Below, piece by piece: positions 1-29,800 of a stretch of DNA of 32,000 bases (positions are counted from its first letter, which is position 1; every line of letters starts with the position of its first letter). Made by a program: the position numbers and the translations under genes. Below the pieces are notes generated by a model. That model was not told the DNA's origin. It saw only the letters and a list, made by a program, of their open reading frames with translations, and did no database searches. Origin of the DNA: Candidatus Lokiarchaeum ossiferum. Its GTDB lineage: Archaea > Asgardarchaeota > Lokiarchaeia > Sigyniarchaeales > Promethearchaeaceae. The stretch is taken from assembly GCA_025839675.1 (NCBI GenBank), contig CP104013.1:750001-782000 (forward strand), in the 5' to 3' direction.

Positions 1-612
1 GGACTGACCTGGGGACAATTTTTAGATTCTTTAGATGATGGAACGTGTCAAGTTTTTATGCTCGGATGGGGACCTGATTTCAATGACCCAAGCAATTTTA
101 TAAATCCATTGATGTTTTCAAATTCATCGGACAATCGAGCCCATATAAATGACTCAAAATTAGACACTTATATTATTTCTGGATTAAATGAAATAAACTG
201 GAGTAAACGAGAAGAAATCTATAAAGAATTGCAACATTATATCATAGATTTAGCCCCATGGGCATATTTATATACAAGTAATGCGAGATCGGTCTACTAT
301 ACAGGATGTGTTAATACAGCTCGTAATCCTATGGGAAAATTGTATTTCTATTTGTGGGATTTTGATTATTCCAAAATCAAAGCGGATTTGTTTTCATTTT
401 CCAATATTCTATATTTTATTGGGGGGGTCGGAATTTTGATCGGAACAATAATGTTATTAAAATCGCAAAAAGAATGGCGAGAGAAACAAAGGGAGAAACG
501 GTTACAAAGAAAAGTTCAACAGTTTTTTGCGGAAAAGAATGATGTCAATAAATTCATTGATGATTTAGATGAAAACTTTACGCACTGGGATAAAAATAAG
601 AAGCTTGAATAA
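1..612 (+). CDS. ABC transporter substrate-binding protein, family 5 (oligopeptide/dipeptide/nickel type), 3' fragment; the 5' end lies outside the window
   Basis: Frame 1 is open from nt 1 (GLTWGQFLDSLDDGTCQVFMLGWGPDFNDPSNFINPLMFS...), upstream of the Met at 58 listed in the ORF track. The G-W-x-x-D-x-x-D-P-x-N-F stretch and the following ...RAHINDSKLD...EIYKELQHYIIDLAPWAYLY... resemble the C-terminal lobe of SBP family 5. Stop TAA at 610-612. Confidence 0.8.
   Translation, partial: GLTWGQFLDSLDDGTCQVFMLGWGPDFNDPSNFINPLMFSNSSDNRAHINDSKLDTYIISGLNEINWSKREEIYKELQHYIIDLAPWAYLYTSNARSVYYTGCVNTARNPMGKLYFYLWDFDYSKIKADLFSFSNILYFIGGVGILIGTIMLLKSQKEWREKQREKRLQRKVQQFFAEKNDVNKFIDDLDENFTHWDKNKKLE
406..459 (+). 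other. C-terminal transmembrane anchor of the substrate-binding protein, followed by a ~50-aa highly charged tail
   Basis: Hydrophobic run ILYFIGGVGILIGTIMLL, then KSQKEWREKQREKRLQRKVQQFF... (positive-inside tail). C-terminal anchoring of binding proteins is common in archaea. Confidence 0.6.
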
Positions 613-776
613 TTGAGGAATCCATGTTTGAGAAAATTCACTTCCTTCTGTTAATTAGCTTACTCATTAAAGAGAATAAAAAAAAAATTTTCCCTTGGGG
701 ATAATATCTCCAGAATATCAAAATAACAACTCATTTCAATAAGTAAAGTGATCGTAATTTAATTACACACTGAGTT

Positions 777-837
777 TCACACACTCTACTTTTTTCCCTC
801 AGAAGGAACATCACACACTCCTTCTTTCTTCCCTTCA
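777..837. repeat. Imperfect tandem direct repeat (25 nt and 27 nt, 9-nt spacer) with a CACACAC core, pyrimidine-rich
   Basis: tcacacactctacttttttccctca (777-801), spacer gaaggaaca, then tcacacactccttctttcttcccttca (811-837). A third acacac copy lies at 765-770. The repeat sits in the 340-nt spacer between two convergent genes. Confidence 0.6.
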
Positions 838-945
838 CTTTTGAGATTTTATACATTAATTTAATGCAAGATAATTAAAACCATGTGAAGTAGGTCTTTA
901 ATTCATTGACTAAATCCAGAAATCAACTTTATTGCAAATAAGAAG

Positions 946-951
946 AAAAAA
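946..951 (-). terminator. Oligo-T tract (T6 on the minus strand) 2 nt after the regulator stop codon; candidate archaeal-type terminator
   Basis: Plus-strand aaaaaa at 946-951 lies next to the stop TAG (complement of 954-956). The signal is short and common in AT-rich DNA. Confidence 0.25.
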
Positions 952-953
952 TT

Positions 954-1721
954 CTAATCAAAGACAATTTTTTGACCGGACCGGGGATCAATATAAGGCG
1001 TTTTTTTATCAAAGAAGACATAAACACCTACATCCACCATTTGTCGCTCTTGATCAATTTTTAATACTTCAACCGAGATGCGTCCACCATAAATAGGAGT
1101 AATCGTTGCAGAAATCGCAGCTTCCGTTATCCCCGCAATAATATAATAATGTCCAAATCCATTTTCTTCCACAGGATCACTTGCCACATAACCACCTTCA
1201 AATTCCACAATCGCAGCCAAATGAGTTGCAGGATTTGGAAAACCATCGCTAGTTAAATGTGAAATATAGCGTGATTTTTCCACAGTACTCGCTTCCTTTA
1301 AGAGTTTTAACAAGTATTTAATAACATCATCTAATTGATGAGGTTGTTCCTTCAATCGCAGAATATTAGGTTCGGGAATTTTCAATTTGGGATAAACATA
1401 CCTTCCAATCTTCTTGAAATTTTCTTTTCCTTCAGGTTTATCAATATCCCAAATCCCTCCACCAATTTCCTTTAAACCTTGCAAAATTGCTTGGTATTGA
1501 TAACCAAGAATGGTTTGAGGTTTTAATGGTTCTTTTAACTGCCAGGTTTTATCATTGTTTTTTTGGACTAATCCACTAAGTTGTAGTACTTCGAGGTATC
1601 GATAAACAGAATTACGAGAAACATCAAGTAATTTTTGAAGGGATCCAATCCTTAATCCATCAGGATTACGCTCCAATAAATATAGGATTTTTTCTTTGAT
1701 TTCTTCTCCTTTTTTTGTCAC
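954..1721 (-). CDS. Winged helix-turn-helix transcription regulator (MarR/ArsR/TrmB-like N-terminus) with an uncharacterised ~180-aa C-terminal domain
   Basis: 255-aa ORF with a GTG start (complement of cac at 1719-1721). An SD-like GAGGAG lies about 10 nt upstream. The N-terminus KILYLLERNPDGLRIGSLQKLLDVSRNSVYRYLEVLQLSGLVQK is a typical wHTH recognition-helix and wing pattern. The C-terminal part (…GFGHYYIIAGITEAAISATITPIYGGRISVEVLKIDQERQMVDVGVYVF) loosely resembles V4R-type ligand-binding domains, but that is only a shape-level impression. Confidence 0.8.
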   Translation of the reverse strand: MTKKGEEIKEKILYLLERNPDGLRIGSLQKLLDVSRNSVYRYLEVLQLSGLVQKNNDKTWQLKEPLKPQTILGYQYQAILQGLKEIGGGIWDIDKPEGKENFKKIGRYVYPKLKIPEPNILRLKEQPHQLDDVIKYLLKLLKEASTVEKSRYISHLTSDGFPNPATHLAAIVEFEGGYVASDPVEENGFGHYYIIAGITEAAISATITPIYGGRISVEVLKIDQERQMVDVGVYVFFDKKTPYIDPRSGQKIVFD

Positions 1722-1730
1722 TTACAATAA

Positions 1731-1738
1731 TCTCCTCA
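1731..1738 (-). promoter_or_regulatory. Shine-Dalgarno-like sequence for the regulator
   Basis: The minus strand reads TGAGGAGA, followed by TTATTGTAA and then GTG. Confidence 0.4.
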
Positions 1739-1763
1739 ATAAAGTACTTTAGAAAAAAGAGAC

Positions 1764-1778
1764 AAATATATTTAAAAA
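1764..1778 (-). promoter_or_regulatory. TATA-like box candidate for the regulator promoter
   Basis: The minus strand reads TTTTTAAATATATTT, about 45-55 nt upstream of the GTG. That spacing would give a short leader containing the SD. Many such strings exist in this AT-rich spacer. Confidence 0.25.
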
Positions 1779-1784
1779 TTATGC

Positions 1785-1826
1785 AAAAAAGTTCTAAAAT
1801 TAAGTAAAAAGTTCAAAAAAAAGTTC
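1785..1826. repeat. Three direct copies of A(5-8)GTTC; candidate operator-like elements
   Basis: caaaaaaGTTCt, taaaaaGTTCa and aaaaaaaaGTTCa, with GTTC at 1791, 1811 and 1823. They lie just upstream of the regulator promoter candidate. Confidence 0.4.
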
Positions 1827-2723
1827 AATTTTTAATTAAGAAAATCTTTTTTTTAAGAGAGATAAGAAGGTCTGAAACAGATTTCTCCAAGGGAATTTGT
1901 TTAGAAAATATGAATCCTAAAGACATTCATTATTTTAAATTTGATTCATATAAATAATATAAAAAATATAGAGCTGAAACCCATACTCATTCGAAAACAA
2001 CATGTTACTAATTTGGAAATGATTTCCTTTGATGTTTATACAAAATAATCAATTGATCAGAAATTGGTATAAATTGATTTATAATATTAGGAAAAAATTT
2101 AATTTCCTTTCCTTTCTTCTTGTTAGATGTTGTATTTTGATTTTTACAGATCAGCAATATGGGTTGAAAATTTTTATTAAAATTTCTGAAAAGATATTTT
2201 TTTTGATTCATAAACCTCTTCCAACGCATAAATGAAATCGACTTTAAATATTCCTACAAGCGAAGACTGATTATTTTCTCCAAAATTGATATAAAGAAAT
2301 TAAAAAAATTTTGATATGAAAGCAAAAAAAAAAAAAGGAAAAGTTAAAAACTGGAAAAATCTTCAATGAGTTTTTTCAAGGAGATCAATATCAAATTTCT
2401 CAGAAATCAAATAAATAATAAAGGAATCTGCCAAAATTCTAAATATCATACAAAATATGAAGCAAATCGATTCACTTTAAAATTTCTTAGATCATTTTAA
2501 ATGCAGTTTTTAAATTTAAAATAGTGTCACAATGCTTATAATCTCTCCAAAACCCTTTTATATATTGACACATAACAGTATAGTATATTAAATATCAATT
2601 TGTAATAATCCAAATTAAGGCTGAGATTGTACGCAAATTTTCATCAATGAAGATAGATCTAATCTAGTTGAATTTCTCCAATTTTTTTATAGTCTCTAGA
2701 ATACTTGTTTAAGAAAGAATTGA

Positions 2724-2735
2724 CTTTATATAAAA
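2724..2735 (+). promoter_or_regulatory. TATA-like box candidate upstream of the giant gene
   Basis: ctttatataaaa lies ~110 nt upstream of the ATG at 2843. Other TATA-like strings (for example 2556-2566) are equally possible. Confidence 0.2.
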
Positions 2736-2831
2736 TTGGTTCTACTTGGATAAAATTCCATTGTAGAAAGGTTCCATTAAGAAATGATCAAGTTTGGTTG
2801 AAGATAGATGGGATACTTTCAAAGTTTTCGT

Positions 2832-2836
2832 GAGGT
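2832..2836 (+). promoter_or_regulatory. Shine-Dalgarno-like sequence of the giant gene
   Basis: GAGGT within gtgaGAGGTcgacaaATG, with a 6-nt spacer to the ATG at 2843. Confidence 0.5.
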
Positions 2837-2842
2837 CGACAA

Positions 2843-5800
2843 ATGATGAAAAAAAAAACTCATAACTTGAAATCTGATTTTATTTCTAAGTTTACACATA
2901 AAATTGCCTCATTTGGAGGCATCTGTGCAATATTATTATTGATAATAGTTTCTGCACCTCTTGAAAATCCTACTGCATCAGAATCAGTAGTATATAACCC
3001 TAGTAGTTCTACCTACCAGTATAATTATGGGGAAAGACCTCCAATTATTGCATGGAATATTACATCTTTAAAAATGGGGGATTTTTCCTACCTTATTCGA
3101 AATGAAACATCTGTCCTCCAGACAGGACGACTATCCAAATTAGGAGTTCTTAGATTTCAAACCCCTTCGGTTCCTTGTGGCATCTATAATTATACTTTGG
3201 ATATTTATGAACATGAGAAAATAATTTCTTCTCACACAATTTGGGTCTCAGTTATAAATGATCTTCCAACATTTGAAAATGTAGTATATGAAGACCAATA
3301 TGAATTCGGAAGTAAATTTAACATGATTCAATGGAATTTAATTGATCGATTCATCGATAGAGGTTATTATGAAATTTTTGACGGATTTGGCTCGAAATCA
3401 ACTCGGAAATTGGCTCGATATGATTTAATTTCTCCAAATGCAACAATTAACTACTATTTTCCAGATTTAGAAATTGGTGATCATCTTATTCGATTAGAAT
3501 ATTATGATGGATTAGGCGGGTCAAAAATTTCTCAAATACCGATCTCGATTTTACCTGATTTAGATCCGAGAATTACTGCAAAAATACCTAACGATATTGA
3601 ACAAGGACATAATTTTACTGCCACATATACCCTCAAAGATTATATTTATGGAGATGGAAGTTACAACCTTTATTTAAACGGAACACTCCAAGAACAGGGA
3701 AATTGGAACCAGTCGCTTCATATTACACCCGAAATTAATAGTTCAGACCTTGGGCTAGGCACGACTCAATTAATATTTGAATATACTACCCGTGTGGAAA
3801 ATCGAACAGATCCATTCAATTTGACTTATTTTACTGAAATTTATTACCACAAATCCTTCATCACGATTCATAATAATCTTTGTCCTGAAATATCAGGTGA
3901 AATTGACACCACCAAAGAATCAACTACCTTTGTTTGGACTATTTACGATGCAAAATTTGGACCCTCCGCAAATTATCGAATTACCTACCAAGGAACGGAG
4001 ATGGCGTGGGGAAATATAACAGATATCAACTTGTTCACTGATAAAGAAGGTTGCATAGTAAAGTATGTATTACCACACTATCTCACAGCCAAAACGAATC
4101 TTGGTTTGGAATTAGTGGTTGAAGATGGTTTTGGAAATTCTACATCAAATTACTTGGAAATATTATCAAACTATGAAGAAAAGACACCTATTTATTTATC
4201 TTCCTCAATTAAATTGGATAAACCTCCTTCCGATTCGGGGATACCTCTTTTGATTTTGGCAATTGCCATAGGAGCACTTATTTGTTCTGAAATATGGGGT
4301 AAAATGCAAAAAAAAACCCGACGCTTGGTCATGTCCATTGCTGCCATGGGTTTATTGGGATTTAACTTAGATTTAATCACAGGAAGTGCTTTTTTTGGAG
4401 GAGCTTCTCCCATTTCTTTCTTTGAAATTTCCCCTGGATATTCAGAAGATGCTGCAAGTGGTTGGGACACTAATCAGACCGAATTTACTATCCGAGTATT
4501 CGATACTCTTCACTATGAATTTTATTTGCCCGAAGATGCAATTGTAGAACCAATTATCACAAATGAGTTGGGTTACGATATCCCCATTCCTTCTCAGTTT
4601 TATGAAGCAGGAATGCAATCAGGCGAAATTTATATGGATCCCAAGCGATATATCAATATAACTTCTGGGTTTGAAAATGTGACTGAAATCCAAAACTCTT
4701 TAAATTTCTTACCAAATCATCAATATACAATTACATTAAACACCTATCGTCCAGATGAATTGTACGATGTATTATCGGGATGGTCAGACACCTATACTTT
4801 CACAGTAATGAAAGCCAAAAGTGCCATCACTTTTGAAAAAATAGGCGGATATGATAAAGGATTATCGATGGTCGATTATACTAATGATCCGCTAAATAGT
4901 CGAGTGCTTTATCGTTATGAATGTACATTGAGCAATGCCTTTTCCAATGATGCTTTATATAATGAACTCGTGCATATATATCAATTAAACCACAATTCAG
5001 AATTATATGAATCCCTTGATGAAATCTCCACGAATTTAGAAGGAAAAATCTCCATTGGAGAAACTCGCTATGCAAAGGATATTGACGCAGCCGAATTCTA
5101 TTACCCAGGGAATGAATTCTATGAATCAGATTTGGAACAAGATTCAATTGATGTGAATCATATTCTGAGTCCGTTCGATTATACCCATCCAGAAGAAGAG
5201 TTATTGACCGAAGGAGAATCATCCCATATGTTCGATGATAGCTCCACTTCTACTTCCTATACGGGAGTGAATAAAAAAGTTTCATGGGGGCAAAATATTA
5301 CCGATACTCAAGGATTTTTACTCACGGAGCCCACATTTCAAGCACCTCAGCCTCAGTTTGGAGTAATTCCGAATGTTGGAATGTATGTTGGAACAGTATC
5401 GAACTATTCCGGGAGTTGTATTATAATGTCAAGTAGCATTTATGTATATTCCGATTCCGTTGATTATGCTAACCTCACCCTTCGATTTCAAAATATTTGG
5501 CAACGAAATGGTTTAAGTGATGATCTTTCTGAAGGAAATGTTCAACTCAGGGCTATTTTATTTGATGATCTACTCAATATTCAAGAAATTGTTCCCTTAT
5601 ACGATGGTTTTCTGAAATCCTACCAAACTCAGACAATATCTTTTAATCCCGACAATTTTCAAGAAGTAAGTCAGATCTATATCGGAATTTGGGTGGAGAT
5701 TATCGCCCCAACGTGCCATATTGGATATGATTCCGCCGATGAAGTCTATGTCATTTTCAGTGATTTTGAATTGGATATCCGATACCCACCTGCGATTGGA

Positions 5801-8800
5801 TCCGCAGGTCATCTAACCAACTGGGAGACTTATTATTTAGAAGCGAACACTAAGGGCATGGATGTCTTTGTAGGAGAGCACGATTTGACTTTTACAACCA
5901 CTTCTGGGAGAGCTGATGAAGGTACATTAGGTCAGTTAGCAGCTATCGGTGAGATGAAATTACAAAACCCTATAGATTTTACATCCACGTCAGTGGAGTC
6001 TTCTATCATCCAATTTACCTCGGATGGAGTGATTCGCCAAATGATTTTCGATGGTGATGATGGATCTTCCTCCTATAATTTATATTTGACTCCAGTCTAT
6101 TCCGACGGTAGTCGAGGGTCAGTTATGTCACTCCAATCCGCCACCATTGAATCTAATTCATCCACAATTTCTGTGATTCTGTCATTAAATGACTATATTG
6201 GGGAAGTAATTTCCCATTGGATTTTAACGGGCGAATTTAATATTCCGAGTACTTCTCACGGCCTTCCAGATTTGGTAGAAATCTTTCTTTCTAATCCTCA
6301 AATTCAAGTTAATGGGGTTGCAATTAACCTTGTTGATGTATCAGATCCCGACCCTGTTCCAGATTATTACTTGAGTCGCACAGTTGAACCGATTCCTAGT
6401 GATCCCCCCCAATATTTGCCCGATTCAGAGGGTTTCTTACGGGATCATTGTGTTGCAGGACCATTTTTTGTCACCACTCAAGTTTGGGAAGAATATGAGA
6501 CAATTACAGGCGAATTTATCGATCCTACCCGAGATTATCAACCAGGAGAATTCACTGTTCCGAATACTCCAGCATTACCAAATAGTGACCCAAAATTGTG
6601 GGAATATGTGCATAGTAATAAAATGCACATGAAATATAATTCCTATTATAATATAAACGATTTTTGTGTCGCTTACAGCTCCTTTTATGTATATATTTCT
6701 GAATTTACGCCAAATCTATATATTCGAGGAGGTTCCGATGAATCAAGCCGATATTATTGGGATTCCGAAGAAATATATTATAGTCATGAACGTCGTACCT
6801 TAGACATCAAGACATCAGAAGAAGAACATGATATCATCCATTTAACTAATATAACTCAGGGGTACCACAAAGTGTTGATAATGACAGAGGAATATGACTC
6901 TTTGTGGCGCTATAGAGTGAGATTTTCATTAACGCCAGGATCTGGAGATGCTACATATACACCTGTTCACAATATACATTTTACCCACGAACGCCCTGAA
7001 TCGGATCCTCGTTTTACTTCTATTACAATGGATACTCAAATTCAAAAATCCCCCCGAATCACTCCAAATCGTGATAGTCTGATATTTTCTCCTAACCCGC
7101 AGCGAGTGAAGGAAGGAACCTATGCAGAAATGACAGTAAAATCATTCATCGCTAATGGAACCGCCCTATCAGGAACTCTTTTTAATGGAAGCTTGGCCAT
7201 GAATCTTCAAGGATTTGTTGATTTAGCGGAATGGACCGCCGATTCCGTAGGAGTAAATGCTTCTCTTACTTTTGAATTATTTGCGAAAAACGATTTGGGA
7301 AATTATGTGCGAGAATTTGATACGCTTTTATGGACCGATCTCCTTTCGGATATAACGGCTCTTTCCCTCACCGTTGAAAATATCACGGTCGAGTTAGCTC
7401 CCGTTTTTGCGAATTTTTCCAGCCCCGATAGACTTCTCCAAGAATATTTTATCCGGTTTAAAATGATTATGGTTGCTGAAGATGATGGAACCATTCCTGC
7501 TAATTTAGGTGTGGAAATCAGCAAACTTAGTCTTGTTCTAAATGATCTTGAACCGGTGGCCGATTGGATAAATATTAATGATGGTGAGTTATTATCGGGA
7601 ATCAAAAATCTATCTGTAGTAGGAGTTTCTAGGGATATTGATATGGTTCGATTTTTAGGGTCTTACGATAATGGCCTCACTACTTATCCAATTGGGGAAG
7701 TCTATTATAATCCCGCAACCATGGCTGATTGGGTGTTTACCTATGCTTTCGATACCGACCACCATCCTATTTTTCATAACGATACGGAAAATTTCACACT
7801 CATTGCTGAATTAATGGACGATTATTATTCTGTGGAACTGACAATGATAACAGGATTGAAAATAGACAACACCCCCCCTGATTTACAGATCCGAAATGTA
7901 AATAGCAATGATCTTTTAACTGAACCCGTGTGGATTGAAATTGATACTGAAGCAACGGATATCGAATATATTGATCTTTATTTGGATTCATATAACGATA
8001 CAGAGTTAATCGAATCACAATTACTTACCACCTTGACCGATGGGACCGGTGGATGGTTGTATTATTTAGATCCTTCATTATACCCATCGAGGGAATATAA
8101 TATAAAAGCAGTTGCAACAGATCGCACATTTGAGGAATCTTTACAAGGAAATGCCGAATTAACTAATGTGGAATTTGCTCGAGTATCTCCCTTCTTTATT
8201 GGAACATCGCCTCTAAATGGATCTGAAATTTCTGATAGCGTTACTTTTGAATTTCAAGCATCTACCACCTTAATTAGTCACATTGACATTGCAGTATCGA
8301 CCACTGCTACTCAAGATCTTTCCCAAACGGATTTCATGCCTCAAACAACTTTAAATGGAGATGCGAGTGATCTTTATTCTTATATTTTCGATTCGACCAC
8401 CGTATATGGAGAAGATTGTGAAGCGTGGCATTATCTACAGTTTGATTTTTGGATTGATGCTTACAAAGAGACCTATTACTATTTACTCTTTATTAATAAT
8501 CAACCACCCCTAATTAGCATGGATTTTGAGCCTTCCACAAATTTCCTCGCCCAAACTTATTCTTACGAATTATTAAATAATGTGGTTGATGGCTTATTGA
8601 CTCACGAAATTTTGACGATTTTTAACCAATCCACTCTTCAATTGGATATTGATCATAGTTTTACGGAGGATATTGCCGTTTTGGAATATTATGTCAATGT
8701 TTTTGATCAAACCTACCAAAATCTCAGCGATCCTTTAGCCAATCAATTGAACTATGATATGATTACAACAGATTTACAATTTTCCCCATCTATCGAAGGA

Positions 8801-11800
8801 TATGGCTTGGAAGATGGCTATTCCTACTTCCGAGATCTCAGTCAAGGGATATTATGGACCCTTACCCAACTTCAAGAAAACATTGAAAATGATACAATCT
8901 ATGATGCAGGAGATATTTTTGATCGGGCTTCGGAATGTGCGTATTTAGGATATGTCGAGCAATTTACTACCATGATTCCGGCCCATTATATAAAGGATGC
9001 CGATCACGCGATTGTTGCTCAATTTGAAGCCCTATTTTCAACGCTCTATAATGATTTAACCTACATTGATACTTTAGCCGCTCTTGTAGATGCGAAAGAG
9101 CAAAATATCATAGATAAAGAAATTGAAATCCTATCTGCTGAACTTGCGTTAGCAAATGCCATCGATGATTTATCTATATTAAATAGTGAATTAGCAGCAT
9201 TGAATGCTCAATTGGCTTCAAATCAAACCCTTCTATCATCAACTCAAGATTATCTCAGTCAAAAACAAGCAGACTTAGTCGCGGCTGAGGTGGCTCGAGA
9301 TGATCCCTTGACGGGAGTAGATGCCTTATGGGAACTCATTGTCTTAAAGGAATCGTATTACGATTCGAATGCCTCCCGGGCGACGGCTATCACGAACTCC
9401 GATTCCACAGGATTACGAGGAATTGCTAAAAATGAGTGGGATAGCGCTGAAGCAATGTTGGCTTTATGGCAAGACTATTATAATTGGAACGATTCGCGCC
9501 AGCTTGCGATAAGTGATTCCGATTTCACCGGGTTGCGAGGACTCGCCTATGATGAATGGCAAACCGCTCAAACCACCTTAGATCTGTGGCAAGGCTATTA
9601 TGCAGCCAATATGTCTCTCCAAACCGAGTTAGGGGATGATCAGGTAGGATTAATTGCCGATGCATTAAATGACTGGAACGCTTTGGAAAATGAACTAACC
9701 CTTTGGCAAACATATCAGAGTTGGAATATTTCACGGTTGAATGAAATCGGCAGTGATGATTATCAAGGTGATCGAGGAACAATGTGGTTAATTATTCAGA
9801 GTATCGAAGATGATCTTAATTTCTGGATAAGTGAACGGGATAATTATTACGATCGAGCAGTGAACCAAATTACTGATTCTGATTCCTCCGGAGAGCGAGG
9901 TGCGGCCAAAGATGTCTGGGATGCTGCCCTTCTTGCCTTGTCAAATAAGGAAGCAGAACTTGTCTCATGGGAAGCAAATCTTGCGACCTATGGCGATAAT
10001 GAATCTGGACTTATTGGAGATAAAAAAACAGAATGGGATGCAGCCATAGCAGAAGTGATTTATTGGCAAGGAGAAGTCAATGCTCAGGCAATCATTGTGA
10101 ATACTGAAATTGCTGAGCGAGATCAATTATATGATGATGTGCAAAATCGATTATCAATAGCATCTTCTATTCTTAGCACAATTAATGCATGGGAAGCATC
10201 GCTTACGGCCTTGGAAGCCGACTTAGTTGATTTAATCCAAATTTGTGATGATCTACAAGATCTCGCTGATTATTATCTTCAGAGGCGAAATGATTTTACA
10301 CCTGGTTCCAGCGGATGGAATTACTGGGAAGATATGTGGTTTGACACCCTTTTTGAGTTATATAGGGCCCAGAGAGATGTTACTGATTGTGAAAATTCAA
10401 TAACTGCTTTAGAAAATGCAATAGGTGTCGATACAGGGTATTATGCCACTTCAACAGCGAAATGGAAGGAATACCGATATTATAAAGGAGACATTAATCT
10501 TTTGAATCCTGTTCAAGTCTATGAAGATTATATTTATCAAGCTAATACTGTAGTCCCAAATGTTCAAATCGTCCTATCATCCTATCAAAATTCCTTGGAT
10601 TCAAGTATAGCAAGTGCAACAATTAAAGAAATGGAATATGATGCATTAGTTGCCTATCGAGATAATACAATCTTAATTAATATTGCTTCAATTCAAGCTG
10701 AAATAAATGATACTTCTGAAGGAAGCTTGCAAGATGCGATTAATGACGCAGCTGCGGCCTATAATGCTTTAATTGACGAGTATAACAGTATCATGGATCA
10801 ACCAGACGGCTTTTATTGGATATGTGTAGCAACTATCGGAGATGAATCAATTGGTCTGGTGAAGGATCTAAATGATGCATATGATTATCGACAGTCGCTA
10901 ATTGATGAATATGATTACATCTATAATATTGCTTTACCCTTATGCGATGATACTATCAATAATCCTTCAACAGGATTGATAACACTAGCGAGTACCGCTG
11001 AAACCTATTATAATTCTTTGAATGCGACTCTTGTAGGGGTGAATGCTGATATTGCATATTGTGTCACCATTATTGGAGGTACCAGTTCAGGTCTTATTCA
11101 AGATCGGGATCAAAAGTTTGCCTTCTATAATTCACTCGTGGCCGAATATTTGGCCATTACCGAAAATGGGGGCAATTTGGATATCTGTACGGCTCAAATT
11201 GTAGCTTATATTGTCTTGAGCGATCAAGAAGAGCAAAAATATCTCGATTTAATTGCGGAATACAATTTGATTATGACTGTGATACTTCCGACATTAGATG
11301 ATGAAATCAATAATCCAACTACAGGTCTTTATGCCCTTCGTCAAGCTTTATTCGATACCATTTCGGTATTAAATGGAGAAATAGCAGGGATCTTGGCAGA
11401 TATTTCAACCCTTGAAGGTATTATTTATAGCATTGAAAATGACATTACAATTAAAACTAGCGAGATTTCTGCCCAAGAAGGTGTGCAAGCTTCCATCGAA
11501 GCCGACATCATAGGATTGTATAGTGATTTAGATGTTTTAAATTCGGAATTAAACACTCTCGAGGATCAGTATAAGCAAGAGTCGCTCTTAAAATTGGACC
11601 ATGCATATAACTTCATGTATTTAGTTCTCCAGCCCAAACTTACAGGCTTAAATTATAACATTTTGGATGATTCGTTAGCTTCATTTACCTCCCAATCGTT
11701 ACTGACCTATACAGGAGGAACACCTAATTGGAATCCAACTCTCGATATCTCCTCAATTCCCGATGGATTTATTGCAATCGGTATTTATGCCGAAGATACT

Positions 11801-26800: not shown

Positions 26801-29800
26801 GCCTATCAAAGCCGCACATTCCAGCAGTATGATTGGGATGAGATTAATGTCCATACCAGCATTCCAAGTTATGATGAATTCTTTATTGATAAAGATGGGG
26901 AAGAGCAAAACTATTTCCTGACTAACACAACCGTCTTCGATTGGAGTGAGTGGACTACGGGTTATACCACGTCCTATGATCAAGAAGGTGATGGAGCATG
27001 GGAAAAAGTGATAGATCGTCAAGATCTCTTCCAGAATGATGAATATTACTTGGAAGAGGGATATGACAACTATATTTTCGAAACCTATTCAACCCGATCT
27101 GCGAGTTCCTATGATGTCTATAACGTGACAAATCCTTCGGAAATTTTAGAGACGAAACTCAACGTAACAATCGATTATGGGAATACATTGGTCGAAGACG
27201 CCACCTTCTATCTCTTAGGGGCTGATTCTCCCGATGAATGGCTGACCACAGGCAAGTGTTTGAATAATATCACCGGATCTTTTGTGGTAGAGTACAATGT
27301 GCCGGTCCCAATCGATCCTCGGATTGAAGTGCCAGAATCCATGCGAATTCAAGAAAATGGTCTTATCTATTGGTATAACAGTAATCCCGAAGAAGACAAT
27401 TACTATGAAACTGCGTTTATTATGACCGAAGAGAGTGCTAAGGATAATATTGCAGTTGCGGTTTATATCAGTCGCAGCGGTCGTCAGCAAGTATTAACCG
27501 ATCCCCTTGAATATAAATTGAGTGGTGATGACATCATCGCTTCCCATTGGTTGAATGATGAATATGGCTACGAAGATATCATGGATATTGCGTGGGATAA
27601 TGCCTGGACCAATTATTTAGCCATGCTTGAAACGGAAGAATATATGACCATGAATGTTATTGATACGGCCGCATCCGCAGTACTTCTAGCAGGAACGGCA
27701 TTCGCAGGCAAGTTCATAGCATCAGCAGTCATACTATCGGGGCCCGTAGGTTTGATGGTTGGATTCGGTTTAGCCATTGGCTATGTTGCGGGAATGTTAA
27801 TCTATACAAATTATGTTAGACCTGCCATTGAAGATCTTTTAATTGAGCGAGGTGTGATTGGAGATCGTGCCACCGAAATCGGAAAGAATCCCGATGTGCG
27901 GTTTTGGCAAGATTTTAAAACATTCATCGGTGATGGAACGGAAAATTTGGTTGAATCCTTCTCTATTTTCGCATTACGGGATCCAACTCCTTACTATACC
28001 GAAAAGGCCTACTTCATGGATACCGATCCCTTCACTTTGGATCTGAATCCTGGCATCGCCAATGAAACGTGGAATTATGCTATTGAATATAACGTCCCTC
28101 AATTCTGGGCCCCTCGGGCACGAGATGATTATAAAGGACCCCTTCCTTGGTGGGATAATGTAGCAGCAGCCTTAGATTTAGGAGAGGCAATTAAAAATAC
28201 GGGATTCTTCACCGCTCCGCAATCAACGGAACTTGCCGCCCTTGGAATTAGTCTCGGAGTCGATGATGATGAACGATCCGAAGTTGTGGCCCAACTGTGG
28301 GCTCGAGCGGCCACTTACCGATACCAAGCAGATATGGGATCGGGATATATCGTCAATTCTGAAGCCGAAGCGCTAGAATACTGGATGGTCAAGGCTTTAG
28401 AATATCAAGCCTATCACCGCCGCACTTTGCATCAGTTCTTTTATCGAGATGCTCCATGGGGTAAGGAAGGACTTTGGGATATTGAAGAACATCCTACATG
28501 GAATACTATCAATCATATTGGACATGTTGAATCGACTTTAGCCAGCCATTCATTCTCCAATATGACCCGTCTTGAATATCAAACAGGAGCCTTAGGAGAA
28601 CCGACATTGGTCGCTCGCAAAGATACCACCCTCAATTATAATGATTCGAATATCTACGAAGTCGATTATCAAATCATGTGTTTGCTGTCCAAGTATCAAA
28701 CGGGCTATGCATCGGCCGAAAACTATGATCCTCGCATCTTCTGGAATAATTTAAAGACCCGAGCCATACAAGTGGCCATTGGAATTGCTTCGGCTTGGTG
28801 TGGAGGTGCCCTCGGATTAGCAGTTGGAACCAAACTTGGTTCAACTATTGCCCTCAATTCTTACGTCCAGCAATATTTCGCCGGAACCGTATCTCAACAG
28901 ACCTTAGATCGAATGGTTTCTATTACATTTACCGATGCGTTCCGCCAGACCACAGCTACTATGGCTGCAAATAGTATATTCGGTAAATACTGGTTTGCGG
29001 AACAGATGATCGAAGAATTGGTCTTAGAAAATATTGTTGCTCAAACTGCTTTATTATTTGGCTGTGGAGAAGGTCTTGCTGAACAATTGGGAGAAATATT
29101 TGGCCAAGTTAATATGCTATCATCCTTCTCAGACATATATATGAATGTGAAGCAAGGAATCGGTTTGTTTGGCCAATTAGGTCAGCGTATTTTCAATTCC
29201 CAGCAGAATTCACTCATGGCTTACCGTGCCTCCCAATCCATTGGGCATTCCTTGACCAATATTAAAGGATTATTGGGGATTTCGCAAGATTCCCAGGGTC
29301 ATATTATCATCCAGAAAAATTTGAAAGCCAGTCAAGATGGCGCCATTTCGACCTTGCAAACCGCGCTTCAGGAGAAACTTCTTCAACAACTGCCCTATGC
29401 CAGCGGTGATTTGCTGTGTGAAGATATTCTTCTTGCTATTATGGAAAGATCCATCGATGCCGCCATGCAAGGACCAAATATGGCTACCCATTCGCAAATT
29501 TTGGACACGGTGCAGGCCAGCATTACGAAGGATTTCCCCCAAGTTCAAATTAGTATGCGTCAATTCACGCAGCTCTTTAAGCTGAAGGTCGTCAATAGTA
29601 TCTTGAGTGGATCGAATGACTTGATGAATGTATTGAACGATCAAGATCTCTGGGAACTTGGAGGAGTGGATCTAAACCAAGGCACCTATACCAAGATGCG
29701 GCTAGCCAACCACGGATCGAACGTAGAATTCCATGTGAAATATGATGGCCAAGTAGACAAATATGTTGATGGAGCGCTCGTGGGCACCTACTTTGTGAAC

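Follow-up and report, generated by a model that had tools for sequence, protein, structure and literature searches.

A predicted membrane hairpin within a giant protein of Candidatus Lokiarchaeum ossiferum

Multi-spanning membrane proteins acquire their topology through alternating signal-anchor and stop-transfer sequences combined with the positive-inside rule, and viral polyproteins, such as those of the flaviviruses, contain internal signal peptides that are cleaved by signal peptidase. The subject of the present analysis is a giant gene of Candidatus Lokiarchaeum ossiferum that invites comparison with both. It is located in a stretch of 32,000 nucleotides (assembly GCA_025839675.1, contig CP104013.1, positions 750,001–782,000 of the forward strand; hereafter the window, whose own numbering is used throughout), in which positions 2843–31642 (+) form one uninterrupted open reading frame (ORF) of 28.8 kb encoding 9,599 amino acids (aa), equivalent to ∼1 MDa. 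An initial annotation, made from the letters alone, had described residues 1–487 as a complete type-I membrane protein joined in frame to a second signal peptide starting at Met488, and had offered either an ancestral fusion of two genes or a hairpin obeying the positive-inside rule as the explanation. The results presented here indicate that aa 466–517 are probably a helical membrane hairpin within one giant multi-pass protein and not a gene boundary: the 'second signal peptide' is real and would be the outgoing arm of a hairpin of two helices that is retained in homologues.

Giant surface proteins are documented in other prokaryotes and include halomucin of Haloquadratum, Ebh/Embp of staphylococci and Giant1-5 of Apilactobacillus (PMC11573180, PMC12863079, PMC7587433). 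Candidatus L. ossiferum, which like its relatives is devoid of an S-layer, has a single membrane and displays 'complex surface proteins' in cryo-tomograms; in this organism and its relatives these structures are thought to mediate cell–cell contacts relevant to models of eukaryogenesis (PMC9834061). The window protein resembles halomucin, Ebh/Embp and Giant1-5 in its size of ∼1 MDa, in its acidic, repetitive and beta-rich ectodomain, in being anchored and in varying between strains; no domain shared with them was detected with Pfam or NCBIfam. To our knowledge, a doubly anchored immunoglobulin (Ig) loop, a hairpin and a large C-terminal intracellular domain have not been described for any of these proteins. 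The 9,599-residue protein, which is strongly acidic (D+E 15.2%, K+R 5.3%), matched no family in Pfam or NCBIfam. For this lineage-specific membrane protein of ∼1 MDa, devoid of annotated domains, a testable topology model is now available, consisting of a doubly anchored Ig-like loop, the hairpin, an ectodomain of ∼7,760 aa and a large intracellular C-terminus.

The predicted hairpin at residues 466–517

Across the whole protein the six top hydropathy windows of 19 residues are aa 21–39, 466–484, 495–513, 8280–8298, 8302–8320 and 8644–8662. These segments are clear outliers among the 9,599 residues, and the same six are far ahead of all others on a scale of summed apparent free energy (dG) with the values of Hessa et al. 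2005. The second and third constitute the two arms of the hairpin. Transmembrane segment 2 (TM2; aa 466–485, GIPLLILAIAIGALICSEIW; positions 4238–4297, +) is the candidate stop-transfer helix and has a Kyte–Doolittle (KD) value of 2.28, whereas TM3 (aa 495–517, LVMSIAAMGLLGFNLDLITGSAF; 4325–4393, +), the internal signal-peptide-like helix that would re-start export, has a value of 1.74. They are separated by a basic loop, predicted to be cytoplasmic, at aa 486–494 (GKMQKKTRR; 4298–4324, +), which includes Met488, the first residue of MQKKTRR (nt 4304). An AlphaFold2 (AF2) model of aa 1–700, built on a 20-sequence alignment and reaching a mean predicted local distance difference test (pLDDT) score of 70.5, places helices at residues 466–487 and 490–515, preceded by a helix at 10–36, four beta-sandwiches and a disordered linker at 443–468, and followed by a beta domain at 526–654. 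The distribution of charge agrees with the positive-inside rule: the N-terminal basic region and the TM2–TM3 loop each carry a net charge of +5, the latter within only 9 residues, and the parts flanking the hairpin are acidic, with −22 for the Ig loop and −895 for the giant middle region. TM3 furthermore shows the n- and h-regions of a signal peptide, KMQKKTRR being followed by LVMSIAAMGLLGF with an h-region of 13 residues, and inspection reveals candidate cleavage sites at TGSA↓F and GGA↓S. Its position at residue 488 departs from the N-terminal location of a Sec signal peptide, a location found solely in the homologue P0003 described below.

Only a handful of 1.84 billion representative proteins match past residue 490 in HMMER searches, and relatives of aa 490–700 were found only in metagenome-assembled genomes (MAGs) of Lokiarchaeota/Promethearchaeota. 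The family with sequenced N-termini comprises five members: the window protein, P0001 (GCA_029935835.1), P0002 (GCA_018238405.1), ORF1 of locus L006 (JGI 3300033144) and P0003 (MBD3349944.1, from the Candidatus Lokiarchaeota MAG GCA_014729055.1), the last four being 52%, 26%, 20% and 26% identical to the window protein after TM3, respectively. Despite 20–52% identity, P0001, P0002 and L006 ORF1 all retain TM2, the basic loop and TM3. The loop reads GKKKRK in P0001 and is ∼27 aa long in P0002 and in L006 ORF1 (+7 in the latter). The regions preceding the Ig loop are more diverse: P0001 has four extra TMs in addition to its TM1 equivalent, P0002 a basic N-terminus of 93 aa before TM1, and L006 ORF1 a basic N-terminus of 60 aa and three TMs. 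In 4/4 fused proteins an odd number of TMs precedes the Ig loop (1 in the window protein, 5 in P0001, 1 in P0002 and 3 in L006 ORF1). Presumed cytoplasmic loops range from +3 to +18, Ig loops from −22 to −36 and the TM2–TM3 loop from +4 to +7. This odd parity, coupled with the alternation of loop charge, is the strongest internal evidence pointing to a functional hairpin, and the positive-inside arrangement contemplated in the initial annotation gains support from three diverged homologues.

P0003 shares a collinear ectodomain with the window protein, its domains after the signal matching aa 516–1715, and differs in having neither Ig module nor hairpin. Its sequence from Met1 onward, MPRNQKLAIKKYLIVSLLMLF..., lines up with TM3 in register, and so does MPRNQKLAIKKYLIVSLLMLFTISNFQGFFAMA... 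at its start with the stretch KKTRRLVMSIAAMGLLGFNLDLITGSAFFGGA of the window. Seven codons before this Met there is an in-frame stop, and further out 357 bp of AT-rich intergenic DNA separate it from a gene transcribed divergently; the start is therefore genuine, and the alignment shows the predicted N-terminal signal peptide of P0003 to be equivalent to TM3. A word-indexed protein search with aa 1–660, the junction alignment and the C-terminal 1,350 aa returned no relatives, although it misses even P0001–P0003, which are present in the collection; searches of genome, metagenome and viral contigs for related loci also returned nothing.

According to the proposed mechanism, TM1 (aa 21–39) would insert with the basic N-terminus in the cytoplasm and export a 426-residue loop containing four Ig-like modules. 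TM2 would then halt transfer, the GKMQKKTRR loop would remain cytoplasmic, and TM3, owing to its signal-peptide build, would re-open the translocon and thread the strongly acidic ectodomain of ∼7,760 residues outward. The hydrophobic segments at aa 8276–8322, and possibly that at 8644–8664, would terminate export, so that the C-terminal 935 residues or more would stay inside the cell as a domain. This model builds on features that are shown, namely the hydrophobic segments, the pattern of charge, the Ig-like folds, the conserved hairpin and the match of TM3 to an N-terminal signal peptide in a homologue; that the segments enter the membrane, which side each of them faces and that the chain stays uncleaved are inferred. 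The mechanism so proposed is ordinary Sec signal-anchor/stop-transfer topogenesis, and the carrier protein is the unusual part. As in multi-spanning membrane proteins generally, an N-in anchor, an exported loop, a stop-transfer helix, a short Lys/Arg-rich loop and a second export-starting helix follow one another; unlike them, the window protein would export stretches of 426 aa and ∼7,760 aa, and its second start-transfer helix appears to have the short h-region of a signal peptide.

Possible fusion, cleavage and slippage at the junction

An exhaustive HMMER search with aa 1–1200 as the query identified 74 matching proteins, and all the traceable ones are from Asgard archaea (Loki/Promethearchaeota, Heimdall-, Sigyn- and Kariarchaeaceae). 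Most are multi-repeat Ig/PKD proteins, with 237 domain matches to aa ∼50–316 and E values of 4e-22 to 1e-13 for the best repeat proteins. In approximately 25 of the 74 remote matches, Ig repeats between an N-terminal and a C-terminal TM, the latter followed by a basic tail, make up an entire stand-alone protein, type-I examples being P0045 (367 aa), P0046, P0061 and P0021. Common to these proteins and to the window are a signal or anchor, tandem repeats of ∼95 aa, a Ser/Pro/Thr-rich linker, a TM and a basic cluster, together with the repeat signature ...W.(I/T)D...Y.I..NG...G.W...(V/I)DGL..G.YNYT.... The window unit differs in that it runs in frame into TM3 and 9,100 residues, and in that its modules fall below Pfam thresholds. 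Some of the stand-alone proteins have a tail resembling Heimdall-CTERM (NF045529): P0012, P0018 and P0042, larger Ig-repeat proteins ending in a TM and a basic tail, score 17–21 bits against this model, below the cut-off of 24 bits. NF045529 was not found in aa 1–4800 of the window protein at E≤0.1, the TM2 region included, and TM2 with its basic tail is internal, not C-terminal, so that the resemblance is confined to the general order of linker, TM and basic cluster.

A fusion is plausible because both halves occur alone, one as P0003 and the other as stand-alone type-I Ig proteins, and the balance tips slightly in favour of the hairpin marking the place where, long ago, a type-I surface protein with Ig repeats was fused to a giant protein that had a signal peptide at its head. 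These comparisons also support the view that aa 1–494 are built like a complete surface protein and that TM3 may be descended from, or interchangeable with, a signal peptide. Following such a fusion, the basic tail of the first protein and the n-region of the second would now be one cytoplasmic loop; the hairpin would then exemplify how two secretion or anchoring signals, the basic-tailed anchor that closes one protein and the signal peptide that opens the next, merge into one topogenic unit. The earlier portrayal of residues 1–487 as a complete type-I protein stands as regards the build, which stand-alone Asgard proteins share, but the type-I label presumes cleavage, and TM1 is more likely an uncleaved anchor than a cleaved signal because in homologues it comes after long cytoplasmic extensions or further TMs. 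Among the relatives found, no genome has two adjacent genes split at the junction; P0003, lacking the N-module, starts with the TM3 equivalent. Any fusion must be ancient, because the fused form is common to lineages that are just 20–50% identical, and the N-module may have been gained once or lost secondarily in P0003. The two-gene origin suspected at the outset is thus partly supported, by the signal-led P0003 and the stand-alone Ig proteins and despite the lack of split genes; fusion and hairpin are not mutually exclusive, and each gains support.

A number of observations weigh against this picture of a spanning hairpin that originated by fusion. The TM calls derive only from hydropathy, charge, AF2 helices and conservation. 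TM3 is marginally hydrophobic, contains Asn and Asp in its C-terminal half and is the least hydrophobic of the six segments (KD 1.74; summed apparent dG 3.8, compared with 6.4 for the best background window). The family numbers five members only, several of them on short MAG contigs with interrupted genes. In the middle region, 83 N-X-S/T sequons compare with 75 expected and so provide no independent proof of an outside location, and a signal-less neighbour of P0003 that resembles aa 8520–8589 (see below) is hard to square with a topology that makes TM4, TM5 and TM6 all membrane-spanning. As for the fusion, a four-branch unrooted tree fits a single gain of the N-module or its loss in P0003 alike, and GC content at third codon positions (GC3) does not jump at codon 488; its best break point is placed near codon 270, within a 5'-to-3' gradient.

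The junction also contains a homopolymer, A9 (4308–4316, +), which extends over codons Q490-K491-K492-T493 and which the initial annotation had singled out as a possible truncation point. Its statements on the letters themselves (the ORF, MQKKTRR at residue 488, the tract at 4308–4316 and stops near codon 508 after slippage) were all correct on recomputation: translation would end at codon 508 with A10 and at codon 509 with A8, in either case leaving an intact two-TM protein. Slippage that yields either the entire giant protein or just an Ig-module protein of ∼508 aa would be in keeping with the position of the tract in the loop and with the variation of the giant gene between strains. As at a contingency locus, the homopolymer is inside the ORF and a change in its length would alter the product; neither an excess over coding constraint nor conservation was found. 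Within the ORF, Lys is encoded by 198 AAA and 68 AAG codons and Gln by 326 CAA and 86 CAG codons, and when synonymous codons are shuffled, A≥9 arises at the junction in 44% of trials. The only tracts of A≥8 in the ORF are 2849–2858 and 4308–4316, both coding for Lys runs in basic n-regions; the former, an A10 at codons 3–6 (MMKKKT), is equally trivial, as A≥9 appears there in 41% of shuffles, and the two A≥9 tracts observed are close to the shuffle mean of 0.85 per ORF. The corresponding codons are AAG AAA AAA (A6) in P0001, P0002 has no tract, and a Logan assembly of SRR22273277, which is 100% identical to window 1–11721 and covers the first 8.9 kb of the giant ORF, carries the identical A9. 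Since 44% of shuffles yield A≥9 and homologues have A6 or none, the tract is most likely a passive by-product of AAA-biased Lys codons in a basic loop of an AT-rich genome; a phase-variable switch is highly improbable, and this tempting account is removed as unsupported. An assembly artefact, in which a miscounted homopolymer joined two real genes, is hardly credible: homopolymers are error-prone in some sequencing chemistries, yet an A8 or A10 would strip the downstream frame of Met488 and the basic n-region, the ATG being upstream of the tract, and the second gene would be left with neither a proper start nor a signal; moreover, the in-frame fusion exists in three homologues that have no long homopolymer, and the independent assembly is identical. 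Internal initiation at Met488, yielding a second form of the giant protein that lacks the N-module and, like P0003, is led by a signal peptide of its own, also seems very unlikely. Met488 directly precedes the basic cluster, where P0003 begins, and a GGGGT motif occurs 3 nt upstream; the Met is, however, not conserved (...QLGKKKRK in P0001, ...SKKRALVK in P0002), the motif is non-canonical, too near the ATG and matched by an equivalent at 7/196 in-frame Met codons by chance, and Shine–Dalgarno use is sporadic in this organism, such motifs preceding only some of the neighbouring genes.

Other explanations concern the fate of TM3 itself. Were TM3 cleaved, for example at ...FFGGA↓SP, the ORF would act like a polyprotein and give rise to a three-TM Ig-loop protein of ∼517 aa and a surface protein of ∼9,080 aa held by its C-terminal anchors, neither of which would leave the membrane. 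The n/h/c build of TM3 with its 13-residue h-region would suit such processing, as would the small residues at the candidate −3/−1 positions in 5/5 members and the canonical A-M-A↓C site of P0003. Small residues are frequent by chance, however, AF2 carries the TM3 helix to residue 515 and the conservation is explicable without cleavage, which makes this outcome unlikely. The resemblance to flavivirus polyproteins, in which an internal signal behind a stop-transfer helix resumes translocation with the next ectodomain, would be one of analogy only, as there is no sequence relationship and cleavage of the window protein is hypothetical. Doubtful to a slightly greater degree is a broader proposal, namely that the ORF is a covalent assembly of separate Asgard genes (a type-I Ig protein, a signal-led fibre and an intracellular module) in which TM3 is still cleaved. 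If true, one 28.8-kb gene would produce, in stoichiometric amounts, a three-TM Ig-loop base and a ∼1-MDa fibre reaching a large cytoplasmic domain; such a system would parallel, in a prokaryotic cell, the way viral polyproteins are processed, and might correspond to the 'complex surface proteins' on Lokiarchaeum. At the opposite extreme, TM3 might not span the membrane at all, TM2 being the sole anchor in this part of the protein and the 7,760-aa middle region being cytoplasmic. Such a topology could account for the weakness of the hydrophobic segment, for middle-region sequons not being enriched and for the downstream parts of the L006 gene being ORFs without signal peptides. It is assigned little probability: the TM3 equivalent is the only N-terminal signal of P0003, the segment and its basic loop are conserved in all members, and the region that follows is beta-rich, Ig-like and, like the Ig loop, extremely acidic.

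The Ig-like loop, the predicted ectodomain and the C-terminus

The protein starts with a basic n-region, predicted to be cytoplasmic, at aa 1–20 (MMKKKTHNLKSDFISKFTHK; 2843–2902, +; net +5), which includes the A10 tract at 2849–2858. TM1 (aa 21–39; 2903–2959, +), a signal-anchor or signal-peptide h-region with a KD value of 2.36, corresponds to the AF2 helix at 10–36 and aligns with a TM in P0001. It is followed by four Ig-like beta-sandwich modules of the PKD/E-set type (2990–4162, +; aa ∼50–138, 143–237, 243–343 and 349–440) and by a disordered, Ser/Pro-containing linker at aa 443–465 (4169–4237, +), AF2 pLDDT being <50 over 443–468. In the modules, blocks mostly exceed a pLDDT of 85 up to aa ∼320 and range from 55 to 82 past that point. 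Foldseek matched the model to tandem Ig-like chains in the Protein Data Bank (PDB), including the Haloferax S-layer protein 7ptp, the MG domains of alpha2-macroglobulin and cytokine receptors. Pfam found nothing above the gathering score in the window modules, the only hit being the TcfC E-set (E 0.022, 14.8 bits compared with a cut-off of 29.4); K319L-like_PKD (PF22352) is above the gathering score in 7/9 of the matching repeat proteins scanned, several of which have Big_3_3 or other Ig-like domains. The similarity to domain-bearing proteins, combined with the modelled beta-sandwich fold, shows that the four modules, noticed from the start, are real Ig-like domains. A BLASTP comparison of aa 1–487 with itself and with the rest of the protein revealed no internal duplication at the sequence level; it takes profiles and structure to bring out the modules. 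The loop at aa 40–465 contains 12 N-X-S/T sequons, compared with 4.9 expected from composition; N-glycosylation at such sites has been documented in an Asgard archaeon (PMC11284389). An antisense ORF of 92 aa at 4192–4470 was not accepted as a gene, given that homologues conserve the protein sequence of the sense frame.

Beyond the hairpin, the first beta-rich domain of the ectodomain (aa 526–654; 4418–4804, +), delineated by AF2, is kept in P0001, P0002, P0003 and L006. Further downstream, at aa ∼2180–2420 (nt ∼9380–10100), there are Trp-rich helical repeats of ∼40 residues (..SDS.G.RG.A..EWD.A...L.LWQ.YY..) in at least three clear copies. These are part of a longer low-complexity alpha-helical stretch, unlike the otherwise beta-rich ectodomain.

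Towards the C-terminus, hydropathy defines a contiguous hydrophobic pair, TM4/TM5 (aa 8276–8322; 27668–27808, +), whose number of crossings is ambiguous, and TM6 (aa 8644–8664; 28772–28834, +), a weak Gly/Ala-rich segment. The C-terminal domain of 935 residues (aa 8665–9599; 28835–31639, +) is less acidic, with 9.2% K+R, and is probably cytoplasmic. It contains 0 N-X-S/T sequons, compared with 6.1 expected (Poisson P ∼0.002), a depletion that exceeds the expectation even for a cytoplasmic domain. A PDB sequence search with the C-terminus returned nothing, and a single-sequence AF2 model of the domain (pLDDT 35) was unusable. The divergent gene adjoining P0003 (L003 1–468, − strand) encodes a product whose residues 84–156 resemble aa 8520–8589 of the window protein (nt ∼28400–28609), in the TM5–TM6 segment, at 30% identity over 74 aa (pairwise E 7e-5), and the 156 N-terminal residues present on the contig include no signal peptide. 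This neighbour favours a topology in which everything past TM5 would be intracellular, and hints that the C-terminal module may be a separate neighbouring gene in the P0003 genome.

Two of the homologous genes are interrupted. In L004 (JAPOGW010032930.1, 339–4131) the closest homologue, P0001, stops after the first post-hairpin domain, at the equivalent of window aa ∼690, and an ORF located 53 bp after it matches window aa 9419–9554 and ends with ...MFDWWQN, compared with ...MDPWWTNYQN in the window; the pair looks like a remnant of a giant gene that underwent a deletion of ∼8,700 codons. In L006 (Ga0366838_1055697, 2953–9052) the gene is represented by three consecutive ORFs in different frames, joined by TAA, 8 nt, ATG and by TAA, 2 nt, ATG, with homology running gapless across both joints. 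The downstream pieces have no signal peptide, and the ORFs could be a frameshifted pseudogene, assembly errors or real coupled cistrons.

Locus and strain comparison

The start codon of the giant gene is preceded, 6 nt upstream, by a Shine–Dalgarno-like GAGGT (2832–2836, +). The gene has a GC content of 39%, compared with 30–33% in flanking DNA and in the corresponding locus of strain B36, the GC content of the window being 38%. Along the ORF, GC3 climbs near-linearly from ∼0.25 in the first 500 codons to 0.40–0.44 near the 3' end (slope p = 1.5e-13); mosaic origin, foreign origin and position-dependent selection are possible causes. Rfam and tRNA scans of the 32-kb window gave no matches.

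Upstream, a helix–turn–helix (HTH) gene (954–1721, −) is encoded identically in the Logan assembly and in CP163304, the sequence of Candidatus L. ossiferum strain B36 (bioRxiv 10.64898/2026.02.13.705702). Window 678–1920 is 98.96% identical to B36 (L001 9801–11042) and homology ends at 1920: in place of the 920 bp and the giant gene of the window, B36 carries a gene for an Arf-family GTPase. On the other side of the HTH gene, a tandem array of SBP_bac_5 genes differs between the strains, the window copy best matching the third B36 copy at 83%. The giant gene is thus, on this comparison, strain-variable at the locus, and the HTH gene lies between two strain-variable regions, because only this gene and its immediate flanks are common to B36. 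The intergenic region that separates the divergent HTH and giant genes (1722–2842) measures 1.1 kb, is AT-rich (∼30% GC) and contains an A13 tract at 2324–2336 and several A8/T8 runs, as well as a 73-aa ORF called in the Logan contig.

The left edge of the window (58–612) encodes the C-terminal end of an SBP_bac_5 solute-binding protein, which comprises a TM (FIGGVGILIGTIMLL) and a long Lys/Arg/Glu-rich tail; in both strains the SBP_bac_5 genes form a tandem array of three to five paralogues. The sole heavily N-glycosylated protein found in P. syntrophicum is a solute-binding protein of the SBP_bac_5 kind (PMC11284389).

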